In this document: piece by piece, positions 4,815-48,478 of the stretch
Layout of the letters: each line of letters begins with the position of its first letter
How positions within the stretch are numbered: position 1 is the first letter of the stretch
Assembly (NCBI GenBank): GCA_964567575.1
Contig: CAZMMZ010000002.1
Coordinates: forward strand, 14,254 to 78,253
DNA from: Candidatus Undinarchaeota archaeon
GTDB taxonomy: Archaea; Undinarchaeota; Undinarchaeia; Undinarchaeales; UBA543
Direction of reading: 5' to 3'
DNA: 64,000 nucleotides
The notes under the pieces: model-generated
What the model saw: the letters and a program-made list of their open reading frames with translations, nothing else
Database searches by the model: none
Told to the model about the DNA's origin: nothing
Translations under genes and position numbers: made by a program

Positions 4815-6118
4815 GTTGCAATCCCAACAATAAATACAATGAATAGTATCAGTGGGATAAAGTATCGTATCAAATAAATTATCCAATGTGGCATATTCAG
4901 TTTTGTGTGTTTGTTTACAGCAGTAATGAATTTCTTTGAACTGAAGAACCAAGAAACTGTTATTGTGAATATTAGTGCGACAATTGGTAGTGTTAAAGTT
5001 CCAATTACATAATCAATTCCATCTAAGAATGGTTTTCCAAATAATGAAAGTTTCACAGCACTGTAACTCAAAGCTGATGGAAGACCAACAAGCAGTGCAA
5101 TACCATAAACAATTTTATTTGCGCGACGTCGTTTCATACCATATTCATCAATTAAAGAAGATACCCAAGTTTCTCCAATTGAAATTGCTGAAGTTATTCC
5201 AGCGAGAAGGAGAAGTAGGAAAAAGATTGCTCCGAAAACTCTACCAAAAGGAATCAGTGCAAAAACTTTTGGAAGCGTGATGAAAGCTAATTCCGGTCCT
5301 TGTCCAGGATTCATTCCAAATGCAAAAACAAGTGGGAAAATAATAAGACCTGCTAAAATTGAAATTAGAGTATCTGTTATAGTTATTGTAGCTGCAGCAA
5401 GTGGGATGTCTGTTTTTCTGTCTGTATAACTTGCATAAGTGAGAAGCAAACCAAATCCTACACCAACAGAGAAAAATGCTTGACTGCATGCGAAGATCCA
5501 AATCTTTGGATCAGCAAGAACAGAAAAGTTTGGAGTTAAGAAAAACTTCACACCTTCCATTGCTCCTGGAAGTGAGACTGCGCGAACTATCATAACAATG
5601 AAGAAAAGAAACATGAGCGGCATTGTGTATTTGCACAGTTTTTCAATTCCTCTTTTTATTCCTAAAGAATCAATAAAGAATAGTATTACAATTACTAGTA
5701 AAAAGAAAACCAGTGGAAGGTAAGAGCCACTAAAGCTTGCAAAACCTTGGTATCCTGTAAATGAAAATACAAAGTAAGCGAATATCCAACCAACAATTAC
5801 AATGTAATAACTGAGAATCGCCATCAAAATTATCAGGAAAAACCATCCAAGGTATTTTGTTCTTGCTCCAAGTTTTTTAAAGAATGATAAGATTGATGTT
5901 TGGAATGTCCATCCTGCAGATAATTCTAATAATACAATTGGAAATGCTAAGAGAATAATTGCAATAATATATGGAATCAGGAATGCTCCGCCACCATTTT
6001 TCCCAGCAATATATGGGAAACGCCAGATATTTCCAATCCCCACTGCAGAGCCAACTGCTGCAAGTATAAATCCGAGTTTTGACCAGTGCTCACGAGGTTT
6101 CTTCAGGAGCTTTTTCAT
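4811..6118 (-). CDS. Sodium:neurotransmitter symporter family (NSS/SNF) transporter
   Basis: 435 aa, polytopic. The NSS signature GNIWRFPYIAGKNGGGAFLIPY is near the N-terminus. Confidence 0.85.
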   Translation of the reverse strand: MKKLLKKPREHWSKLGFILAAVGSAVGIGNIWRFPYIAGKNGGGAFLIPYIIAIILLAFPIVLLELSAGWTFQTSILSFFKKLGARTKYLGWFFLIILMAILSYYIVIVGWIFAYFVFSFTGYQGFASFSGSYLPLVFFLLVIVILFFIDSLGIKRGIEKLCKYTMPLMFLFFIVMIVRAVSLPGAMEGVKFFLTPNFSVLADPKIWIFACSQAFFSVGVGFGLLLTYASYTDRKTDIPLAAATITITDTLISILAGLIIFPLVFAFGMNPGQGPELAFITLPKVFALIPFGRVFGAIFFLLLLLAGITSAISIGETWVSSLIDEYGMKRRRANKIVYGIALLVGLPSALSYSAVKLSLFGKPFLDGIDYVIGTLTLPIVALIFTITVSWFFSSKKFITAVNKHTKLNMPHWIIYLIRYFIPLILFIVFIVGIAT

Positions 6119-16371: not shown

Positions 16372-17169
16372 ATGGCAAGTGCAGAAATTGGAATTATTGG
16401 TGGAACTGGTGTTTATGATCAGTCTCTTCTAGAAAATGTTGAGCAAGTCAACATTGAAACTCCGTATGGGAAGCCATCGGATGTAGCAACAATTGGAGAA
16501 TTTAAAGGACAAAAAATTGCATTTATTCCACGTCACGGTCCAAAGCATACAATCCCTCCTCACATGATAAATTATCGAGCTAATATTCACGCATTCAAAG
16601 AGCTTGGTGTCAAGTGGATTCTTGCGCCGCAGGCTGTTGGTTCTCTACAAGAAAACTATCGACCAGGTGAAATTGTTTTTGCAGATCAATTTATTGACAG
16701 GACTTGGGGACGTCCAACAACTTTTTATGACGGTCCTGAAGTTTGTCATATTTCTGTTGCTGAGCCATTTTGTTCTGACTTGAGAAAACTTCTTGCAGAA
16801 AAAACTAGACAACTTGGTTATGGTATGCATGATTCCGGGACATATGTTTGCATTCAAGGTCCTCGGTTTTCAACTAAAGCAGAATCCAAAGCATTCCAGC
16901 AATGGAATGGTCATATTATTGGTATGACTGCAGTTCCTGAATGCGTTCTTGCACGAGAAGCTGAGATATGTTATGCATCAATCGGAATGGTTACAGATTA
17001 TGATGTTTGGAAAGAACATGTTGTAACAATTGAAGCAATTGTCAAAGTAATGAAAGAGAATAATGATAAAGTCAAAAATTTAATTGCTGAGATTACGCCA
17101 GAGGTTCCAAAACTTCTTGGGGATCGAAAGTGTGAGTGTGCAACTGCATTAAAAACTGGTTTAATGTAA
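16372..17169 (+). CDS. mtnP: S-methyl-5'-thioadenosine phosphorylase (PNP family 2)
   Basis: 265 aa with IGIIGGTG, FIPRHG and GMTAVPE motifs. Confidence 0.85.
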   Translation: MASAEIGIIGGTGVYDQSLLENVEQVNIETPYGKPSDVATIGEFKGQKIAFIPRHGPKHTIPPHMINYRANIHAFKELGVKWILAPQAVGSLQENYRPGEIVFADQFIDRTWGRPTTFYDGPEVCHISVAEPFCSDLRKLLAEKTRQLGYGMHDSGTYVCIQGPRFSTKAESKAFQQWNGHIIGMTAVPECVLAREAEICYASIGMVTDYDVWKEHVVTIEAIVKVMKENNDKVKNLIAEITPEVPKLLGDRKCECATALKTGLM

Positions 17170-17250
17170 TTATTTTTTAAAAGTGTGGGTACAGCAGGGA
17201 GCTATTGCCCCCTACTGCAAGACGGTAACCGATAAGACGGTTAATATGAA

Positions 17251-17487
17251 TCAAACTTGTGCTGAAATCAGCAAAGTTTGTGTTTTTGTGAAATCAGGTA
17301 ATTGTCGAATTTGTTCAAGGACTTCATTGCTCAAAGCAGTTTCTGTTTCTGCATGGACTTTAGCAATAATGTCATACTTTCCAAAAACAACATGAGCCTC
17401 TTCTACGCCTGTAATTGCTTTTAGTTTTTGGATCAAACCCTGTTCACTTTCAGGATTCACCTGACCGAGCAAATATGCACTGATCAT
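17251..17487 (-). CDS. Stand-alone Lrp/AsnC C-terminal (RAM) domain protein
   Basis: The C-terminal 78 aa (MISAYLLGQVNPESEQ...HVVFGKYDIIAKV...) fit a RAM-domain pattern. The track's upstream extension to 17646 is probably spurious. Confidence 0.5.
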   Translation of the reverse strand: MISAYLLGQVNPESEQGLIQKLKAITGVEEAHVVFGKYDIIAKVHAETETALSNEVLEQIRQLPDFTKTQTLLISAQV

Positions 17488-17522
17488 TTTGGTAATAAAA
17501 CAATAGTCTTGAGAGTATATAA

Positions 17523-17900
17523 ATATACGGTTCATTTGTAGAAGACGGTCAGAAAGGAACAACAAAAGAATGGACTGACGTAAATGCTGTATTTGTTTGT
17601 GCAGAAGAACATGATAAAAAAATCGAAAGAATAGCCGAGAAAACAACTACAATTATCAAAAACCATAGCAAGAAAGCAAGATATGACAAAATAGTTATAA
17701 TTCCTTTTGTTCATTTATCACAAAATGTTGCATCTTCAAAAATTGCATATAGTATTCTAAAAGAAATTGAACGAAGACTGCAAACAGAGGGTTTGGATTT
17801 TGAAAGATTTCGATTTGGGTGGCACAGGGTCTTAAGATTAAAAATCACTGGAAAAAACCCATTTCGTTATAAAGAAATAATCGAAATTGATGAAAAATAA
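17523..17900 (+). CDS. Free-standing archaeal ThrRS N-terminal editing-domain-like protein (D-aminoacyl-tRNA-deacylase fold)
   Basis: The frame is open from the stop at 17520-17522 to the TAA at 17898-17900 and has no in-frame ATG, GTG or early TTG. The translation ...AVFVCAEEHDKK...IVIIPFVHLSQNVASSKIAYSILKEIERRLQTEGLDFERFRFGWHRVLRLKITGKNPFRYKEII aligns with the archaeal ThrRS editing domain as I recall it. A possible N-terminus (NKTIVLRVYKY) lies in the -1 frame at 17494-17535. Confidence 0.5.
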   Translation: MYGSFVEDGQKGTTKEWTDVNAVFVCAEEHDKKIERIAEKTTTIIKNHSKKARYDKIVIIPFVHLSQNVASSKIAYSILKEIERRLQTEGLDFERFRFGWHRVLRLKITGKNPFRYKEIIEIDEK

Positions 17901-17954
17901 AAAATTATTACGGTTCCGAAAAGCATTAAAACCAAAAGATCTCCACTAACTATA

Positions 17955-18590
17955 ATGAAAACAGAAATTTCGCCGTCAATATTATCAGCTGATTTTAGCA
18001 AGCTTGGTGAAGAATTGAAAGCAATAGAAGCTAATGTCGATTCTTGGCATTATGATGTAATGGATGGTCATTTTGTTCCAAATATAAGTATAGGGATTCC
18101 AGTTTTGAAATCAATACGTAAAATTACAAAGAAACCGATTGTTGCACATTTAATGATAGAACATCCTGAAGATTATATAGAAAAATTTGCAGAAGCTGGA
18201 GCAGATGTTATTGAATTTCATATTGAAACAGCACCAGAACCTGACAAATTAATTCAGCAAATTCATGACCTTGGGAAAAAAGCAGGAATTGCATTAAACC
18301 CAGATACATCCATTGATATGATCTCTTCTTATTTAGACAAGGTTGATATTGTTTTAATAATGTCGGTGCATCCTGGTTTTGGTGGACAGGAATTCATTGA
18401 TGTAACTGAAAAAGTAAAAGAATTACGAGCTAAATATAAAGGTATTATTGAAATTGATGGTGGGATAAATAATGAAACAGCAAAGATAGTAAAAGATGCT
18501 GGGGCAAACAGCTTAGTTTCAGGATCTTATATTTTCCACTCAGAAAATCCTCTGAAAACAGTAGAGGAGCTACGAAAGCTCCTCAAATAA
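17955..18590 (+). CDS. rpe: Ribulose-phosphate 3-epimerase
   Basis: 211 aa with ISPSILSADF, HYDVMDGHFVPN and MSVHPGFGGQ motifs. Confidence 0.9.
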   Translation: MKTEISPSILSADFSKLGEELKAIEANVDSWHYDVMDGHFVPNISIGIPVLKSIRKITKKPIVAHLMIEHPEDYIEKFAEAGADVIEFHIETAPEPDKLIQQIHDLGKKAGIALNPDTSIDMISSYLDKVDIVLIMSVHPGFGGQEFIDVTEKVKELRAKYKGIIEIDGGINNETAKIVKDAGANSLVSGSYIFHSENPLKTVEELRKLLK

Positions 18591-18592
18591 AA

Positions 18593-19465
18593 TTATCTAA
18601 AAATTTTATCAAGTTTTATATCAAAGAAACAAATTTTCCCAGCGTTTGGATAATTATAATCAACAATAATATTTTCCTCATCTGCGTTTGTAACTACCCC
18701 GCCAATAATATTTCCATTCTCATTTTTTCTTATAGTTGCTCCAAGTTCTGGTTGATGTTTAATAATAATTCTAGATTCTGTGATGTTAAGAACTTTAATT
18801 GGCCACCAAACAAGCAACGGATTATAATAAAAGGAATCCAAAACAGGCAGTTGCTCTAACCGTGCTTCTCCAAAATCTCGATTAACATCTGTCACTTTGA
18901 AGAACCACATCTTATTTTTTATTGTGATTGTATTTCCTATTTGTATATTATCATCTGTTAAAGATTCTAATTCTTCTAAGTTCATGTCAATATATTTCTT
19001 AATATCATAAACAGCCGGCATTACTTCAAGTTTTTCAGTTAAATGTTCACCAAAACAATATCGTGATTCAACTTTTTCTCCTTTAAGTTCTGATCCTTCT
19101 TTCATACCATAAACATTACTTTCAAGACCTTTCATAACTTGATTTTCTCCCAAAACAAATTCAATTGTATCTGTACCAAAATTTTCCCCATCTTCAAATG
19201 AACCACTATATGTAACTCTAACTTTATCTCCTATTTCCGCTACTGGAGAACGTAGTAATGCAAATGCAAAAACAGCTCCTAAAAGAACAATAAAAATTAC
19301 TGTGATATAAAGATAAGGAAATTTTTTCTTTTTCTCTTGAATTTTTTTCTTTAAATTAGAACCTGCTATTTTTTCAATAACTTGGCTTATATCCTTCTCA
19401 ATTTTAATTGCAAGATCTTTGTTTTTTGTAGAGGATTTTTTCTCCGAAGATTTCTTCTTTGCCAT
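18593..19465 (-). CDS. Membrane-anchored FKBP-type peptidyl-prolyl isomerase-like protein
   Basis: A basic N-terminus is followed by one TM helix. The FKBP-like core is VRVTYSGSFEDGENFGTDTIEFVLGENQVMKGLESNVYGMKEGSEL. Confidence 0.55.
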   Translation of the reverse strand: MAKKKSSEKKSSTKNKDLAIKIEKDISQVIEKIAGSNLKKKIQEKKKKFPYLYITVIFIVLLGAVFAFALLRSPVAEIGDKVRVTYSGSFEDGENFGTDTIEFVLGENQVMKGLESNVYGMKEGSELKGEKVESRYCFGEHLTEKLEVMPAVYDIKKYIDMNLEELESLTDDNIQIGNTITIKNKMWFFKVTDVNRDFGEARLEQLPVLDSFYYNPLLVWWPIKVLNITESRIIIKHQPELGATIRKNENGNIIGGVVTNADEENIIVDYNYPNAGKICFFDIKLDKIFR

Positions 19466-19515: not shown

Positions 19516-20886
19516 TTACATGCCTGGAACTCGACCTTTGAGCATTTTCATCATTTTTCCCATTGATCGTTTATTTCCGCCAACTTGCTTCATCATTTTT
19601 TTGCTGAGTTTATATTGTTTCAAAAGCATTCTAACTTCTTCAACTGATGCTCCGGCACCGGCTGCAATTCTTTTGACACGAGAACCGCTAATAACATCTG
19701 GATTTTCCATTTCATCTTTTGTCATGGATTCCATAATCACAGTGAAGCGCTTAATCTTTTCTTCAGACATTTGCATCTGATCTTTTGGAATTGCTCCTCC
19801 GAGAGGAAGCATGTCAAAAATTTTGCTGAGAGATCCCATTTTTTTCATACTCTGCATTTGCTTATAGAGATCTTTTAATGTGAATTTTCCTTTTGCAAAC
19901 TCCTTTGCTTGTTGTTCCATTCCTTCTTGATCTTCATCTTCATAAATCTCTTTGATTTTTTTAGCAAGGGATTCAAGATCCCCCATTCCAAGAAGTTTTT
20001 CAATAAATTTTGTTGGATTGAATTCTTCAAACTCGCTGATGCTTTCTCCAGTACCAACAAATTTAATTGGAACGCCAAGAGTTGAACAAGCAGATAATGC
20101 TCCACCACCTTTTGCACTTGAATCAAGTTTTGTGAGAATAACACCTGTTACACCAACAGTTTCATTAAAAGCGCGAGCTTGCTGTGCAGCTTTTTGACCA
20201 ACATCAGCGGGCATTATCAAAAGTTTTTCATCTGGTTTAAAATAATCATTAATTTTCTTTAATTCTTCTGTTAATTCTTTGTCAATAACGCTTCTTCCTT
20301 CTTCATCTTGTGTTAGAGCATCACGACCAGCCGAATCAACAAGAACAACATCAGCGTCTTTCGTTTTGTCAATATTATCTTTTATAATTTGAACCGGATC
20401 TTTTCCACCACCAAAAACCGGGATTTGATTTTCTTCACCAAGTTGCTTTAACTGCTCATAAGCAGCAGGTCTCCAAGTATCTGTGGAAATCATTACAACT
20501 TTCAAACCTTTTTTCTTCAAATATTTACCAAGCTTTGCAGTTGTTGTAGTTTTACCAGAACCAAAAAGACCAACAAGCATAATTTTTCCTTTGTCCTTTA
20601 ATTCGAGTTTTCCTGCTTCGCCAGCAAGCGATGTCATAAGTTCTTCATATACAATATTTACAATATGTTCACGTTTTGAAAGTCCAGTTTTTGGTTTTTC
20701 TTCCGAAGATCTTTTTTTAATATTCTCCGAAAGTTGGAAAACAAGCTTAACATTTACATCAGCAGCTAAAAGTGCGCGTTGAATTTCTTTTACTGTAGTT
20801 TCAAGAGTTTCTTTGTCAATATACCCGGCTCTCGCTATTTTTCGCAAACTTTCCCGCAATGCACTACCTAGCTTATCAAGTACCAT
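19516..20886 (-). CDS. srp54: Signal recognition particle protein SRP54
   Basis: It has an NG domain (GLFGSGKTTTTAKL, DTWRPAA, DSAGR, TKLDSSAKGG) and a Met-rich M domain. The true start is MVLDKLGS at 20886, so the track ORF to 21018 is over-extended. Confidence 0.9.
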   Translation of the reverse strand: MVLDKLGSALRESLRKIARAGYIDKETLETTVKEIQRALLAADVNVKLVFQLSENIKKRSSEEKPKTGLSKREHIVNIVYEELMTSLAGEAGKLELKDKGKIMLVGLFGSGKTTTTAKLGKYLKKKGLKVVMISTDTWRPAAYEQLKQLGEENQIPVFGGGKDPVQIIKDNIDKTKDADVVLVDSAGRDALTQDEEGRSVIDKELTEELKKINDYFKPDEKLLIMPADVGQKAAQQARAFNETVGVTGVILTKLDSSAKGGGALSACSTLGVPIKFVGTGESISEFEEFNPTKFIEKLLGMGDLESLAKKIKEIYEDEDQEGMEQQAKEFAKGKFTLKDLYKQMQSMKKMGSLSKIFDMLPLGGAIPKDQMQMSEEKIKRFTVIMESMTKDEMENPDVISGSRVKRIAAGAGASVEEVRMLLKQYKLSKKMMKQVGGNKRSMGKMMKMLKGRVPGM

Positions 20887-21184
20887 GGTGTATCCTCTTA
20901 ATATTTCTATTAATATTTGTTGTGGTTGCTGATTTTGTAAGTGAAAATGTTTATAAGTACTTGCAACACTGAAAAGCTGAGGGGATAATGTTGGATGAGG
21001 AGAGAGAGTTAGGTCCAATTACAGGATTAAGAGCAGGCCTTGCAGGGGTTATGGTTCTTTTTTTAATTTTACTTATGATATACTATACATTTTGGCCAAT
21101 TGTTAAGATAGCTATCGGTTTTCTTCCAACATTATAATTTTAAAGTAACGAAAAGTATATAACGCATTTTTTGACAAAAACACT

Positions 21185-46420: not shown

Positions 46421-47034
46421 TATTTATTTTTGAACAGAATTGCTGCTACGTCCCCCCTTATTTTTTCAGAATCTCTTTCCATGATTCTCTCAATACTATT
46501 ATCAATTTTCAAATTTCCATCTGCACTTTCAATTATAACTCCGCCTGCAATTTCTACTGTTTTCCCAAGTTTTGATTTAAGTTCTTGTGCTAATTCTTTT
46601 CCATACGCTTCATTTTCTTGATTAAAACATAGTTTGCTGTTTTCTCCTATTGCATCTATACCTTCTTTTGCTAGAATTTTTAGCGCGGTTTTATATCTGC
46701 CTGTTCCTTGTTTTGCCATTCTATCCAATTGTGTTTCAGCTTTTTCAATTGCTGAAGTTATTGTATTGTCTCTGCTTCTGAGGTGAATGTTGTGTGCTTC
46801 AAGATTTGTTGAAGAAAGTATTCTTTGCTGTTCTCGGTCTGCATTCTTTTTTCCAGTTTCTTTTATTACAGATTTTTCAGCATTGATTTTTTCTTTTTCA
46901 GTTTTTCTAAGCTCAGTTGTTTTCTCTTTTGCATCGCTAATAATTTTATTAGCTTCTGTTATTGCTTCTTTCATTATTTTCTGATTAATTTTTGTTATTC
47001 CTTCCATTTTATTCACCTCAACCGAATAGGCCAA
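46420..47034 (-). CDS. atpE: A-type ATP synthase subunit E
   Basis: 204 aa, with coiled coils and a globular C-terminus, in the expected position. Confidence 0.75.
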   Translation of the reverse strand: MAYSVEVNKMEGITKINQKIMKEAITEANKIISDAKEKTTELRKTEKEKINAEKSVIKETGKKNADREQQRILSSTNLEAHNIHLRSRDNTITSAIEKAETQLDRMAKQGTGRYKTALKILAKEGIDAIGENSKLCFNQENEAYGKELAQELKSKLGKTVEIAGGVIIESADGNLKIDNSIERIMERDSEKIRGDVAAILFKNK

Positions 47035-48478
47035 CTCCTAACATGATTAATATTGCTATAAGCAAACCAAAGATAGCATATGTTTCTGGAATAACTGAAA
47101 GCACAAGGCCTTTTCCAGTTGCTTCTTTGTTTTTCACTGTTGCTCCAATTGCTCCACCAGCAACTATTCCTTGTCCAATAGCTGATAATCCAGCAAATCC
47201 TACTGCACATCCTGCTGCTATTGATGCTAATCCTGCTACGCTTGTTAGTGATCCTGCTTTTCCAGCTCCAACAAGACCTACTGCTGCAAGTACGAGAATT
47301 GCGACAATGAATCCGTAAAGTGCTTGTGTTTCTGGGAGTACAGAGAAAACCATACTCTTACCAAACACTTCAGGCTTTTCAGAAACTGCTCCAACACCTG
47401 CTGCTGCTGCGATTCCTTGTCCAATAGCTGATAGTCCTGCTACTCCGACTGCGATACCTGCACCAACACCTGCTAGTCCAATTGTTTCTGTTATTCCTTG
47501 ACCACCACCTGATCCAAGTATTCCTGCACCAAGTAATATTAAAATAGCAATAAGCATTCCGTAAATTGCTTGTGTTTCTGGTAGTACTGAGAAAACCATT
47601 CCTTTTCCCATCATCTTATCGTCTTCAGCAACTGTACTAACTGCAGCTCCAGCTGCAATTCCTTGTCCAATAGCTGATAATCCTGCTACACCAACTGCAA
47701 GACCTGCTCCAACAGCTGCTATTCCTGCACCCATTTTTAATGATCCTACAATTGTTCCTCCAATCATTCCTGTTGAAACAAGAATTAGGATTGCGACAAT
47801 GAATCCGTAAAGTGCCTGTGTTTCTGGAAGTACTGAGAAAACCATTCCTTTTCCAAACATGTCTTCTTTTTCAGAAACTGCTCCAATAGCTGAACTTGCT
47901 GCGATTCCCTGTCCAAGACCTGAAAGTCCTGCTACACCAACTGCGATTCCAGCACCAAGTGCTGCGAGTCCAATTGGTAATGGGAGTTTTGCAGATGTTG
48001 TTCCAATAATTCCTGCACCAAGTAAAATTAAAACAGAAATAAGCATTCCATAAATTGCTTGTGTTTCTGGTAATACTGAGAAAACCATTCCTTTTCCCAT
48101 CATCTTATCATTTTCAGCAACTGCGCCGATTGCAGATCCAGAAGTTATTCCTTGTCCAATAGCTGAAAGTCCTGCGAAACCAACAGCAATACCTGCTCCA
48201 AGACATGCAATTGCAGTACCGATTGAAATATCGGCTGTGGCAGTTCCTACAATTCCTGTGCCCATTAAAATAAGTATAGCAATAAGGAAGCCGTAAATTC
48301 CCTGAGTTTGTGGAAGCGCTTGGAAAATAAGTGCTGTTGAGAATTTTTCTGGATCTTCTGTAATAGCTCCAGCTCCAGCAGCTCCTGCGATACCTGCTCC
48401 AATTCCACTAGCTAGTCCTGCTACTCCGACTGCAATTCCAGCTCCTATTGCAGCAATTGCAATTTCTGCAGTTGCCAT
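47018..48478 (-). CDS. atpK: A-type ATP synthase proteolipid (K/c subunit) with six fused hairpins (about 12 TM)
   Basis: 486 aa made of six ~81-aa repeats, each GAGIAVG...GQGIAA...hairpin. The helix-2 ion-site motif is PQTQ in repeat 1, PETQ in repeats 2-5 and PETY in repeat 6. Confidence 0.85.
   Translation of the reverse strand: MATAEIAIAAIGAGIAVGVAGLASGIGAGIAGAAGAGAITEDPEKFSTALIFQALPQTQGIYGFLIAILILMGTGIVGTATADISIGTAIACLGAGIAVGFAGLSAIGQGITSGSAIGAVAENDKMMGKGMVFSVLPETQAIYGMLISVLILLGAGIIGTTSAKLPLPIGLAALGAGIAVGVAGLSGLGQGIAASSAIGAVSEKEDMFGKGMVFSVLPETQALYGFIVAILILVSTGMIGGTIVGSLKMGAGIAAVGAGLAVGVAGLSAIGQGIAAGAAVSTVAEDDKMMGKGMVFSVLPETQAIYGMLIAILILLGAGILGSGGGQGITETIGLAGVGAGIAVGVAGLSAIGQGIAAAAGVGAVSEKPEVFGKSMVFSVLPETQALYGFIVAILVLAAVGLVGAGKAGSLTSVAGLASIAAGCAVGFAGLSAIGQGIVAGGAIGATVKNKEATGKGLVLSVIPETYAIFGLLIAILIMLGVGLFG
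47018..48478. repeat. Intragenic tandem repeat of six ~243-bp units within atpK; copies 486 bp apart are near-identical
   Basis: The anchor gtttctgg recurs near 47089, 47332, 47575, 47822 and 48062. The 47575 and 48062 blocks match over about 50 nt with 2-3 mismatches. Confidence 0.8.

Follow-up and report, generated by a model that had tools for sequence, protein, structure and literature searches.

The window discussed here is a stretch of 64,000 nucleotides of contig CAZMMZ010000002.1 from a Candidatus Undinarchaeota archaeon (assembly GCA_964567575.1). On its plus strand, at 17523-17900, it contains an open frame of 125 codons plus TAA, which resembles the N-terminal editing domain of archaeal threonyl-tRNA synthetase (ThrRS) and has no regular start. 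Most likely, this frame is a non-functional, recently 5'-truncated pseudogene of a stand-alone ThrRS-editing-domain-like gene belonging to a rare subfamily that is here called FGWHR after its sequence motif. The ancestor would have been a stand-alone gene of ~140 amino acids, the second of a tandem pair, ED1 followed by ED2, that was oriented divergently from the gene of a full-length Lrp/AsnC regulator. The lineage at hand would have lost the partner gene and the promoter as well as the start codon and the first ~25 codons, i.e., those of the beta1-beta2 hairpin, and the surviving 3' portion would now adjoin the promoter of an unrelated gene for a stand-alone RAM domain. The relic is presumably untranslated. 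The loss appears to be recent, since the 125 codons are still open and the residues conserved in the family are kept.

The Frame and Its Homology

The frame is free of stops from 17523 to 17897, is closed by the TAA at 17898-17900 and directly follows another in-frame TAA (17520-17522). When the segment was shuffled by mononucleotides, a single one out of 100,000 sequences stayed open. Pfam family PF08915 (tRNA-Thr_ED) matches the translation with an E-value of 2e-20 and 73.7 bits (cut-off 30.2). Solved ThrRS editing domains of M. jannaschii, P. abyssi and A. pernix are matched as well (4rrf, 8.9e-09; 1y2q, 2.6e-07). As to the start, the only ATG, GTG or TTG within 17523-17897 is a TTG at 17793. 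The shuffles, the profile matches and the scan for start codons thus establish that the frame, its homology and the absence of a start are real. The preliminary description had proposed just that, a stand-alone gene resembling the ThrRS editing domain and devoid of a canonical start, and the significant similarity to ThrRS editing domains, which it had named beforehand as a test, was found with Pfam and with the solved structures alike. It had placed the likeness in the C-terminal half. The likeness is there, but it is not confined to that half: the match covers profile positions 26-128 of 137, i.e., most of the domain.

Two motifs deserve mention. The pocket motif P-F-V-H, encoded at 17703-17714 (plus strand), corresponds to Pro80-Phe81-Ala82-His83 of the P. 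abyssi editing domain; its P, F and H do not vary in alignments A2-A4. The subfamily motif F-G-W-H-R, encoded at 17814-17828 (plus strand), emerged from a census of the 150 best representatives and is invariant in alignment A3.

In a six-frame search of the window with a hidden Markov model (HMM), the fragment of this frame (E 3.6e-36) was the only PF08915-like one. Neither a ThrRS nor a second PF08915 sequence was found in the window by profile searches in six frames. The frame is not fused to anything: its TAA is followed by the gene of ribulose-phosphate 3-epimerase (RPE) at 17955-18590.

A word-indexed protein search with the translation yielded zero matches. The homologs discussed below came from an exhaustive phmmer/HMMER search of 1.84 billion protein representatives, in which P0001 was the best phmmer match (49% identity, residues 4-118 of the frame aligning with residues 26-141). 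In a metagenome scan the best match reached 41% identity and no close ortholog showed up; a scan of contigs yielded DPANN relatives at 30-39% identity. At E ≤ 1e-3 the exhaustive search produced 178 cluster representatives; many have 135-150 amino acids, and some of these may be fragments of longer genes. The idea that the stand-alone form is confined to a few archaeal lineages does not agree with such numbers.

The Missing N-Terminus

The homology to the family starts at residue 4 of the frame, which equals family residue 26; the first ~25 residues are absent. Correspondingly, profile positions 1-25 of PF08915, the beta1-beta2 hairpin, are unmatched, and no upstream frame supplies them. What these residues do in an intact protein can be seen in an AlphaFold2 model of the family member P0005 (pLDDT 93.6, pTM 0.88), in which residues 2-18 form a beta-hairpin with a pLDDT of 94-97. 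The model superposes on ThrRS editing domains over its whole length (~142 columns) with a TM score of 0.88-0.90 and more weakly on D-Tyr-tRNA deacylases. As residues 2-18 are a core hairpin, the window copy lacks two core strands of the DTD-like fold.

According to the preliminary description, a plausible N-terminus (...NKTIVLRVYKY...) was to be found in the -1 frame, from which the gene would have been separated by a -1 frameshift at its 5' end. The peptide in question, FGNKTIVLRVYKYTVHL, is encoded at 17488-17541 on the plus strand and is closed by a TAG at 17539-17541, not at 17536-38 as had been given. It proved to be indistinguishable from chance and is here excluded from the gene. With a position matrix built from 117 family N-termini, it reached p = 0.05-0.25 among all six-frame peptides of the window. 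In an hmmsearch with the option --max against the six frames of the window, the -1-frame fragment was not reported even at E ≤ 10. Fusing the peptide to the core added 0.4 bits with the broad model and 2.1 bits with the subfamily model, gains that were equalled by 290 and 152, respectively, out of 400 fusions with random 15-mers from the window. Genuine family N-termini, in contrast, gain 13-20 bits with the broad model and 31-38 bits with the subfamily model.

Moreover, the frame alone, including its first five codons, scores 129.3 bits and thereby exceeds the fusion with the -1-frame peptide (128.1 bits), which implies that the frame itself is homologous up to its 5' end. The lesion is therefore a 5' truncation and not a frameshift, and no upstream frame carries a detectable N-terminus. 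Judged by eye, NKTIVLRVYKYTVHL seemed to align well with the N-termini of DPANN and FGWHR proteins (MKSLILHVDKFATKL). The alignment was nevertheless rejected, because the position matrix, the HMM search and the control with random fusions all failed to support it.

These results bear on the view that the gene is functional by recoding. Ribosomes would initiate in the -1 frame, at the TTG at 17509 or at some point before it, and would pass into the editing-domain frame by a programmed -1 shift at CAT-TTG-TAG (17533-17541). That TTG indeed lies in the -1 frame, the TAG at 17539-17541 is located beside a U-run that might let a P-site tRNA-Leu slip one base backwards, the frame downstream is both intact and conserved, and different assemblies reproduce the sequence. 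The upstream peptide, however, has no detectable homology to family N-termini, and even with it the product would still be some 12-15 residues of the beta-hairpin short. The junction at 17530-17541 reads GTT CAT TTG TAG and contains no slippery heptamer of the type X XXY YYZ. Homology over 17523-17538 resides in the editing-domain frame, not in the -1 frame, and none of the intact family members has a frameshift at this position. Further, the putative upstream part overlaps the promoter and start codon of the RAM gene, and the region is deleted in a contig from another sample (see below). We consider recoding highly improbable.

Local Anatomy of the 5' End

On the minus strand, at 17251-17487, a stand-alone RAM gene (the ligand-binding domain of Lrp/AsnC proteins; PF01037, E 1.6e-11) is transcribed away from the relic. 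It is intact and encodes 78 amino acids. Its product aligns end to end, residues 1-73 with residues 1-73, with the 75-residue proteins 2e1a and 2cvi of P. horikoshii. Merely 35 nucleotides separate its ATG from the frame.

A TATA-like element is located at 17516-17527, which reads TATATAAATATA on the plus strand and TTTATATA on the minus strand and is situated ~30-35 nucleotides upstream of the ATG of the RAM gene. In three loci of relatives (L039, L045 and L042), the orthologous RAM genes likewise have TATA-like elements about as far upstream. Judged from its position, the element most likely belongs to the promoter of the RAM gene. The frame of the relic starts inside this very element, and the homology to editing domains starts ~5 nucleotides beyond it. 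On direct reading of the sequence, no other promoter-like and no Shine-Dalgarno-like element precedes the frame.

Other Samples and a Deletion Variant

An exact-sequence look-up of the RPE gene (17955-18590) retrieved contigs from five other samples. Two of them, L005 (Joint Genome Institute, JGI, 3300036767) and L008 (JGI 3300048645), span the whole region from 17440 to 17960 and are 100% identical to the window. Two more, L006 and L007 from two SRA runs, are equally 100% identical; they cover the 3' 220 nucleotides and the last 53 nucleotides of the frame, respectively. In the interval of the relic no gene was called on L005 or L008.

Hereby a trivial explanation can be judged, i.e., that an indel in an A/T run, made in sequencing or assembly, masks an ordinary intact gene. 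The region is AT-rich (31% GC), and there are short homopolymers near 17535-17537, where such errors might be sought. Yet L005 and L008, which stem from two different JGI samples, are identical across the 5' end of the frame, which makes a sequencing indel unlikely; L006 and L007 can testify just for the 3' part. Since the missing ~25 residues are not encoded in any upstream frame, a full-length protein could not be regained by any single indel, and just 35 nucleotides lie between the frame and the ATG of the RAM gene. An artefact is the least probable of all explanations considered. The preliminary description had left the choice between a pseudogene, an indel and a recoding or initiation event; the evidence is in favour of the first, in the form of a 5' truncation, and the indel and recoding are unlikely.

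The fifth contig, L009 (ENA ERZ27245241), differs. By blastn, its positions 1-440 correspond to 17087-17526 of the window and its positions 444-1941 to 17857-19354, both at 100% identity. The 330-bp segment 17527-17856 is replaced by TTC (positions 441-443 of L009). The junction lacks obvious microhomology, and the gene caller there lengthens the RAM gene to 94 amino acids. Since L009 retains the last 44 nucleotides of the frame, it is derived from a relic-bearing state. The loss of 17527-17856 is a population-level deletion of nearly the whole relic; the population is in the course of losing it.

Syntenic Loci of Relatives

The corresponding loci of relatives were taken from contigs with an RPE gene at 60-76% identity (L039-L050), which came from Tara Oceans, other ENA assemblies and JGI metagenomes. 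In the closer ones (L039-L046; RPE identity 74-76%) the order RPE-FKBP-SRP54 is kept, and RPE is directly preceded, at a distance of ~95-110 bp, by either a RAM-domain gene of 85-95 amino acids or a gene for full-length AsnC. In the more distant ones (L047-L050; 60-64%) genes of transketolase are found downstream in place of FKBP-SRP54. A PF08915-like sequence was not found in any frame at any of the loci L039-L050.

By eye, the RAM gene of the window is the ortholog of a 77-residue gene of L039 (3738-3971), and the shared 5' coding DNA can be aligned. On the other side, the motif ccgaaaagcattaaaacc at 17916-17933 (plus strand), upstream of the RPE ATG at 17955, recurs in L039 at 4956-4973 and marks the downstream limit of the insert. 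As the relatives are free of PF08915 and as the RAM gene and ccgaaaagcattaaaacc are conserved on either side, the editing-domain segment represents a lineage-specific insert. Because the gene is absent from the syntenic loci of the relatives, we infer from these comparisons that it is specific to this lineage. The segment may have come in by transfer, or other lineages may have lost it.

Apart from its use as a landmark, ccgaaaagcattaaaacc is worth noting for its own sake. It is conserved 20-40 nucleotides upstream of the RPE start between lineages with just 76% protein identity and is probably a promoter element.

The FGWHR Subfamily and Its Intact Cassette

The representatives closest to the frame (P0001-P0007, P0011 and P0020; 35-49% identity) have FGWHR where canonical domains have FG(W/Y)YK. 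They comprise 139-143 amino acids, except for P0007 with 110. The frame groups with them and with P0151 and P0152. Over aligned columns it shares 32-47% of its residues with FGWHR members and retains the FGWHR motif together with all of the 17 subfamily-invariant residues. The features of the subfamily that it does not display are the length of ~140 amino acids, the Met start and the N-terminal pattern M(K/R)-hydrophobic.

Four intact FGWHR members lie on contigs from which their genomic context could be read (L010, L035 and L036-38, with L036-38 counted as one protein). In all four, ED2 directly follows an ED1 paralog, and the pair is divergent from a full-length Lrp/AsnC gene. This cassette, Lrp/AsnC and ED1 followed by ED2, is located at 1808-3106 in L010, at 9130-10423 in L035 and at 3021-4379 in L036 (also in L037 and L038). 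ED1, a very divergent PF08915 paralog, has 118-124 amino acids; ED2 has 140-142 and carries the FGWHR motif. The flanks of the cassette vary from locus to locus, and PIN/VapB genes are nearby in two of them. In the window a six-frame HMM search did not detect any ED1, and the full-length Lrp/AsnC neighbour is absent too.

The presence of a RAM gene beside the relic might suggest a single deletion that removed the helix-turn-helix domain of a cassette regulator, ED1 and the 5' end of ED2, and thus fused the regulator to ED2. This idea was rejected, because the RAM protein aligns end to end with stand-alone RAM proteins, shares just 27% identity with the Lrp/AsnC regulators of the cassettes and has, by eye, an ortholog in relatives that are free of the editing domain.

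The cassette may be a heteromeric deacylase of the DTD fold. It is conceivable, if rather doubtful, that the frame is the last remnant of an undescribed two-gene system of ED1 and FGWHR-type ED2. Such a system would probably be a heterodimeric aminoacyl-tRNA deacylase with an altered pocket (His-Arg for Tyr-Lys), would stand under amino-acid-sensing control by Lrp/AsnC and would move between uncultured archaeal lineages. A version thereof in which the truncated window copy is still translated, from a non-AUG start or via a frameshift, is less likely. No description of an ED1-ED2 cassette was found in the literature searched (PF08915, stand-alone DTD-like or ThrRS editing paralogs), the coverage of which is incomplete and leaves the novelty unproven.

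Two observations on other PF08915 genes may be added. In the independent JGI contigs L031 (267-688) and L032 (484-905), a gene with the motif FGSNK is split in the same way into two overlapping frames (99 and 52 amino acids); it may be another example, in an unrelated lineage, of an editing-domain gene that is frameshifted or in decay. A Candidatus Undinarchaeota contig (L001, 3-767) contains two tandem stand-alone genes of the FGYHK type, one cut by the end of the contig, the other of 138 amino acids. Tandem duplication of the editing domain hence occurs also in DPANN archaea.

Comparison with Known Editing Domains

The canonical N-terminal editing domain of archaeal ThrRS (PF08915; P. abyssi, 1Y2Q; M. 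jannaschii, 4RRF) has a DTD-like fold and deacylates Ser-tRNA(Thr). The frame is homologous to it and shares the P-F-x-H pocket motif, and the subfamily member P0005 models onto the known structures, as mentioned. The canonical domain is, however, fused to the synthetase body, whereas the frame is unfused and lacks the first ~25 residues (beta1-beta2) and the start codon. The pocket residues of the P. abyssi domain have been described (PMC4491819). In the numbering of that protein, the frame has PFVH but has Tyr120-Lys121 replaced by His-Arg, as is the case across the whole FGWHR subfamily, and the position of the cross-subunit Glu134 is not conserved. In the P. abyssi enzyme the side chains of Tyr120 and Glu134 are dispensable, and Lys121 positions a water molecule (PMC4491819).

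Editing in trans, separate from the catalytic ThrRS, is known from Crenarchaeota, where ThrRS-ed, a Ser-tRNA(Thr) hydrolase (Sulfolobus; Aeropyrum ThrRS2; NF011500; PDB 4RR6), contains PF08915. This protein, however, has ~390 amino acids and includes an anticodon-binding domain (PMC11295145), whereas the FGWHR family has a single domain of ~140, of which the window copy is a fragment. The frame matches the NF011500 model of 387 positions weakly (E 7.5e-10), far under the cut-off.

More similar in size are the single-domain PF08915 proteins of DPANN archaea (138-145 amino acids; L001, L003, L004 and L012), which are also free-standing and share 28-39% identity with the frame. They differ by an FGYHK motif and a GHPGS tail, where the frame has FGWHR, and they usually occur singly and start with ATG. 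The sequence of the frame places it in the FGWHR cassette type (L010, L035, L036-38). The cassette has ED1, the full-length Lrp/AsnC gene, a start codon and the N-terminal hairpin; the window locus has none of these.

Pseudogene or Shortened Protein?

The pseudogene is not beyond dispute. Its 125 codons are fully open, though 5.9% of the possible substitutions would create a stop, and not a single one of the 17 invariant residues is changed. The mean identity of the frame to members of the subfamily is 36%, versus 35-41% for the intact members among themselves, and it departs from conserved columns five times, versus one to six times in intact members (the column of the start Met excluded). 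As its divergence is not excessive, the frame itself shows nothing that would positively point to neutral decay. Internal stops, frameshifts and relaxed constraint were looked for in the frame and not found, which is compatible only with a recent inactivation. In addition, the deletion allele is known from one MEGAHIT contig. All these points weigh against a pseudogene. The absence of internal decay fits a recent truncation and at the same time leaves room for a residual function.

Such a function could be exerted by a shortened protein that is translated from a near-cognate start, e.g., the ATA at 17523, and would serve either as a regulatory subunit or, on its own, as an aminoacyl-tRNA deacylase. 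The open frame, the conserved PFVH and FGWHR pocket motifs and the lack of excess divergence could be explained this way, and the ATA directly follows the upstream stop codon. The missing residues, however, form a confidently modelled core beta-hairpin in the intact member. There is no Shine-Dalgarno-like sequence or promoter of its own, and the sole TATA element is spaced for the opposite gene. Initiation at AUA is very inefficient in archaea. The ED1 partner is absent from the window, the segment is dispensable in L009, and no gene was called for it on L005 and L008. A shortened but functional protein is therefore unlikely, albeit the most serious competitor of a pseudogene.

In favour of a pseudogene are the truncation, the missing start codon and, as far as can be inferred from the nucleotides, the lack of an own promoter. 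Its dispensability is evident from the deletion allele of L009 and from its absence in L039-L050. Although the frame is a member of PF08915 and of the FGWHR subfamily by sequence, the properties of a functional member, namely a complete domain, a start codon and a partner gene, are all wanting.

Significance

The apt annotation is that of a pseudogene fragment of a PF08915 protein, not of a recoded gene nor of a functional trans-editing factor. For the window itself this carries little weight. It is, however, a clean case of gene loss in progress: the relic is still open, and one population of an uncultured marine archaeon is already polymorphic for its deletion. Of more use is a by-product, the intact cassette of Lrp/AsnC and ED1 followed by ED2 in several uncultured archaea, which could represent a new trans-editing activity.

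Other Features of the Window

A weak match of the ED1 HMM at 17165-17392 on the plus strand (E 0.29) is antisense to the RAM gene and was taken as chance. An Rfam search of the window revealed a tRNA-Val gene alone, and a scan for promoters and terminators of the bacterial type was uninformative for an archaeon.

Two further genes may be mentioned. At 47018-48478 on the minus strand, the window encodes a proteolipid (K/c subunit) of an A/V-type ATPase with 486 amino acids, in which six PF00137 repeats are joined in a single polypeptide; so many fused hairpins are unusual. The SRP54 reading frame at 19516-21018 on the minus strand is listed with 500 amino acids from a TTG, whereas the orthologs of the relatives have 452; the true start is probably an internal ATG (MVLDKLG...).

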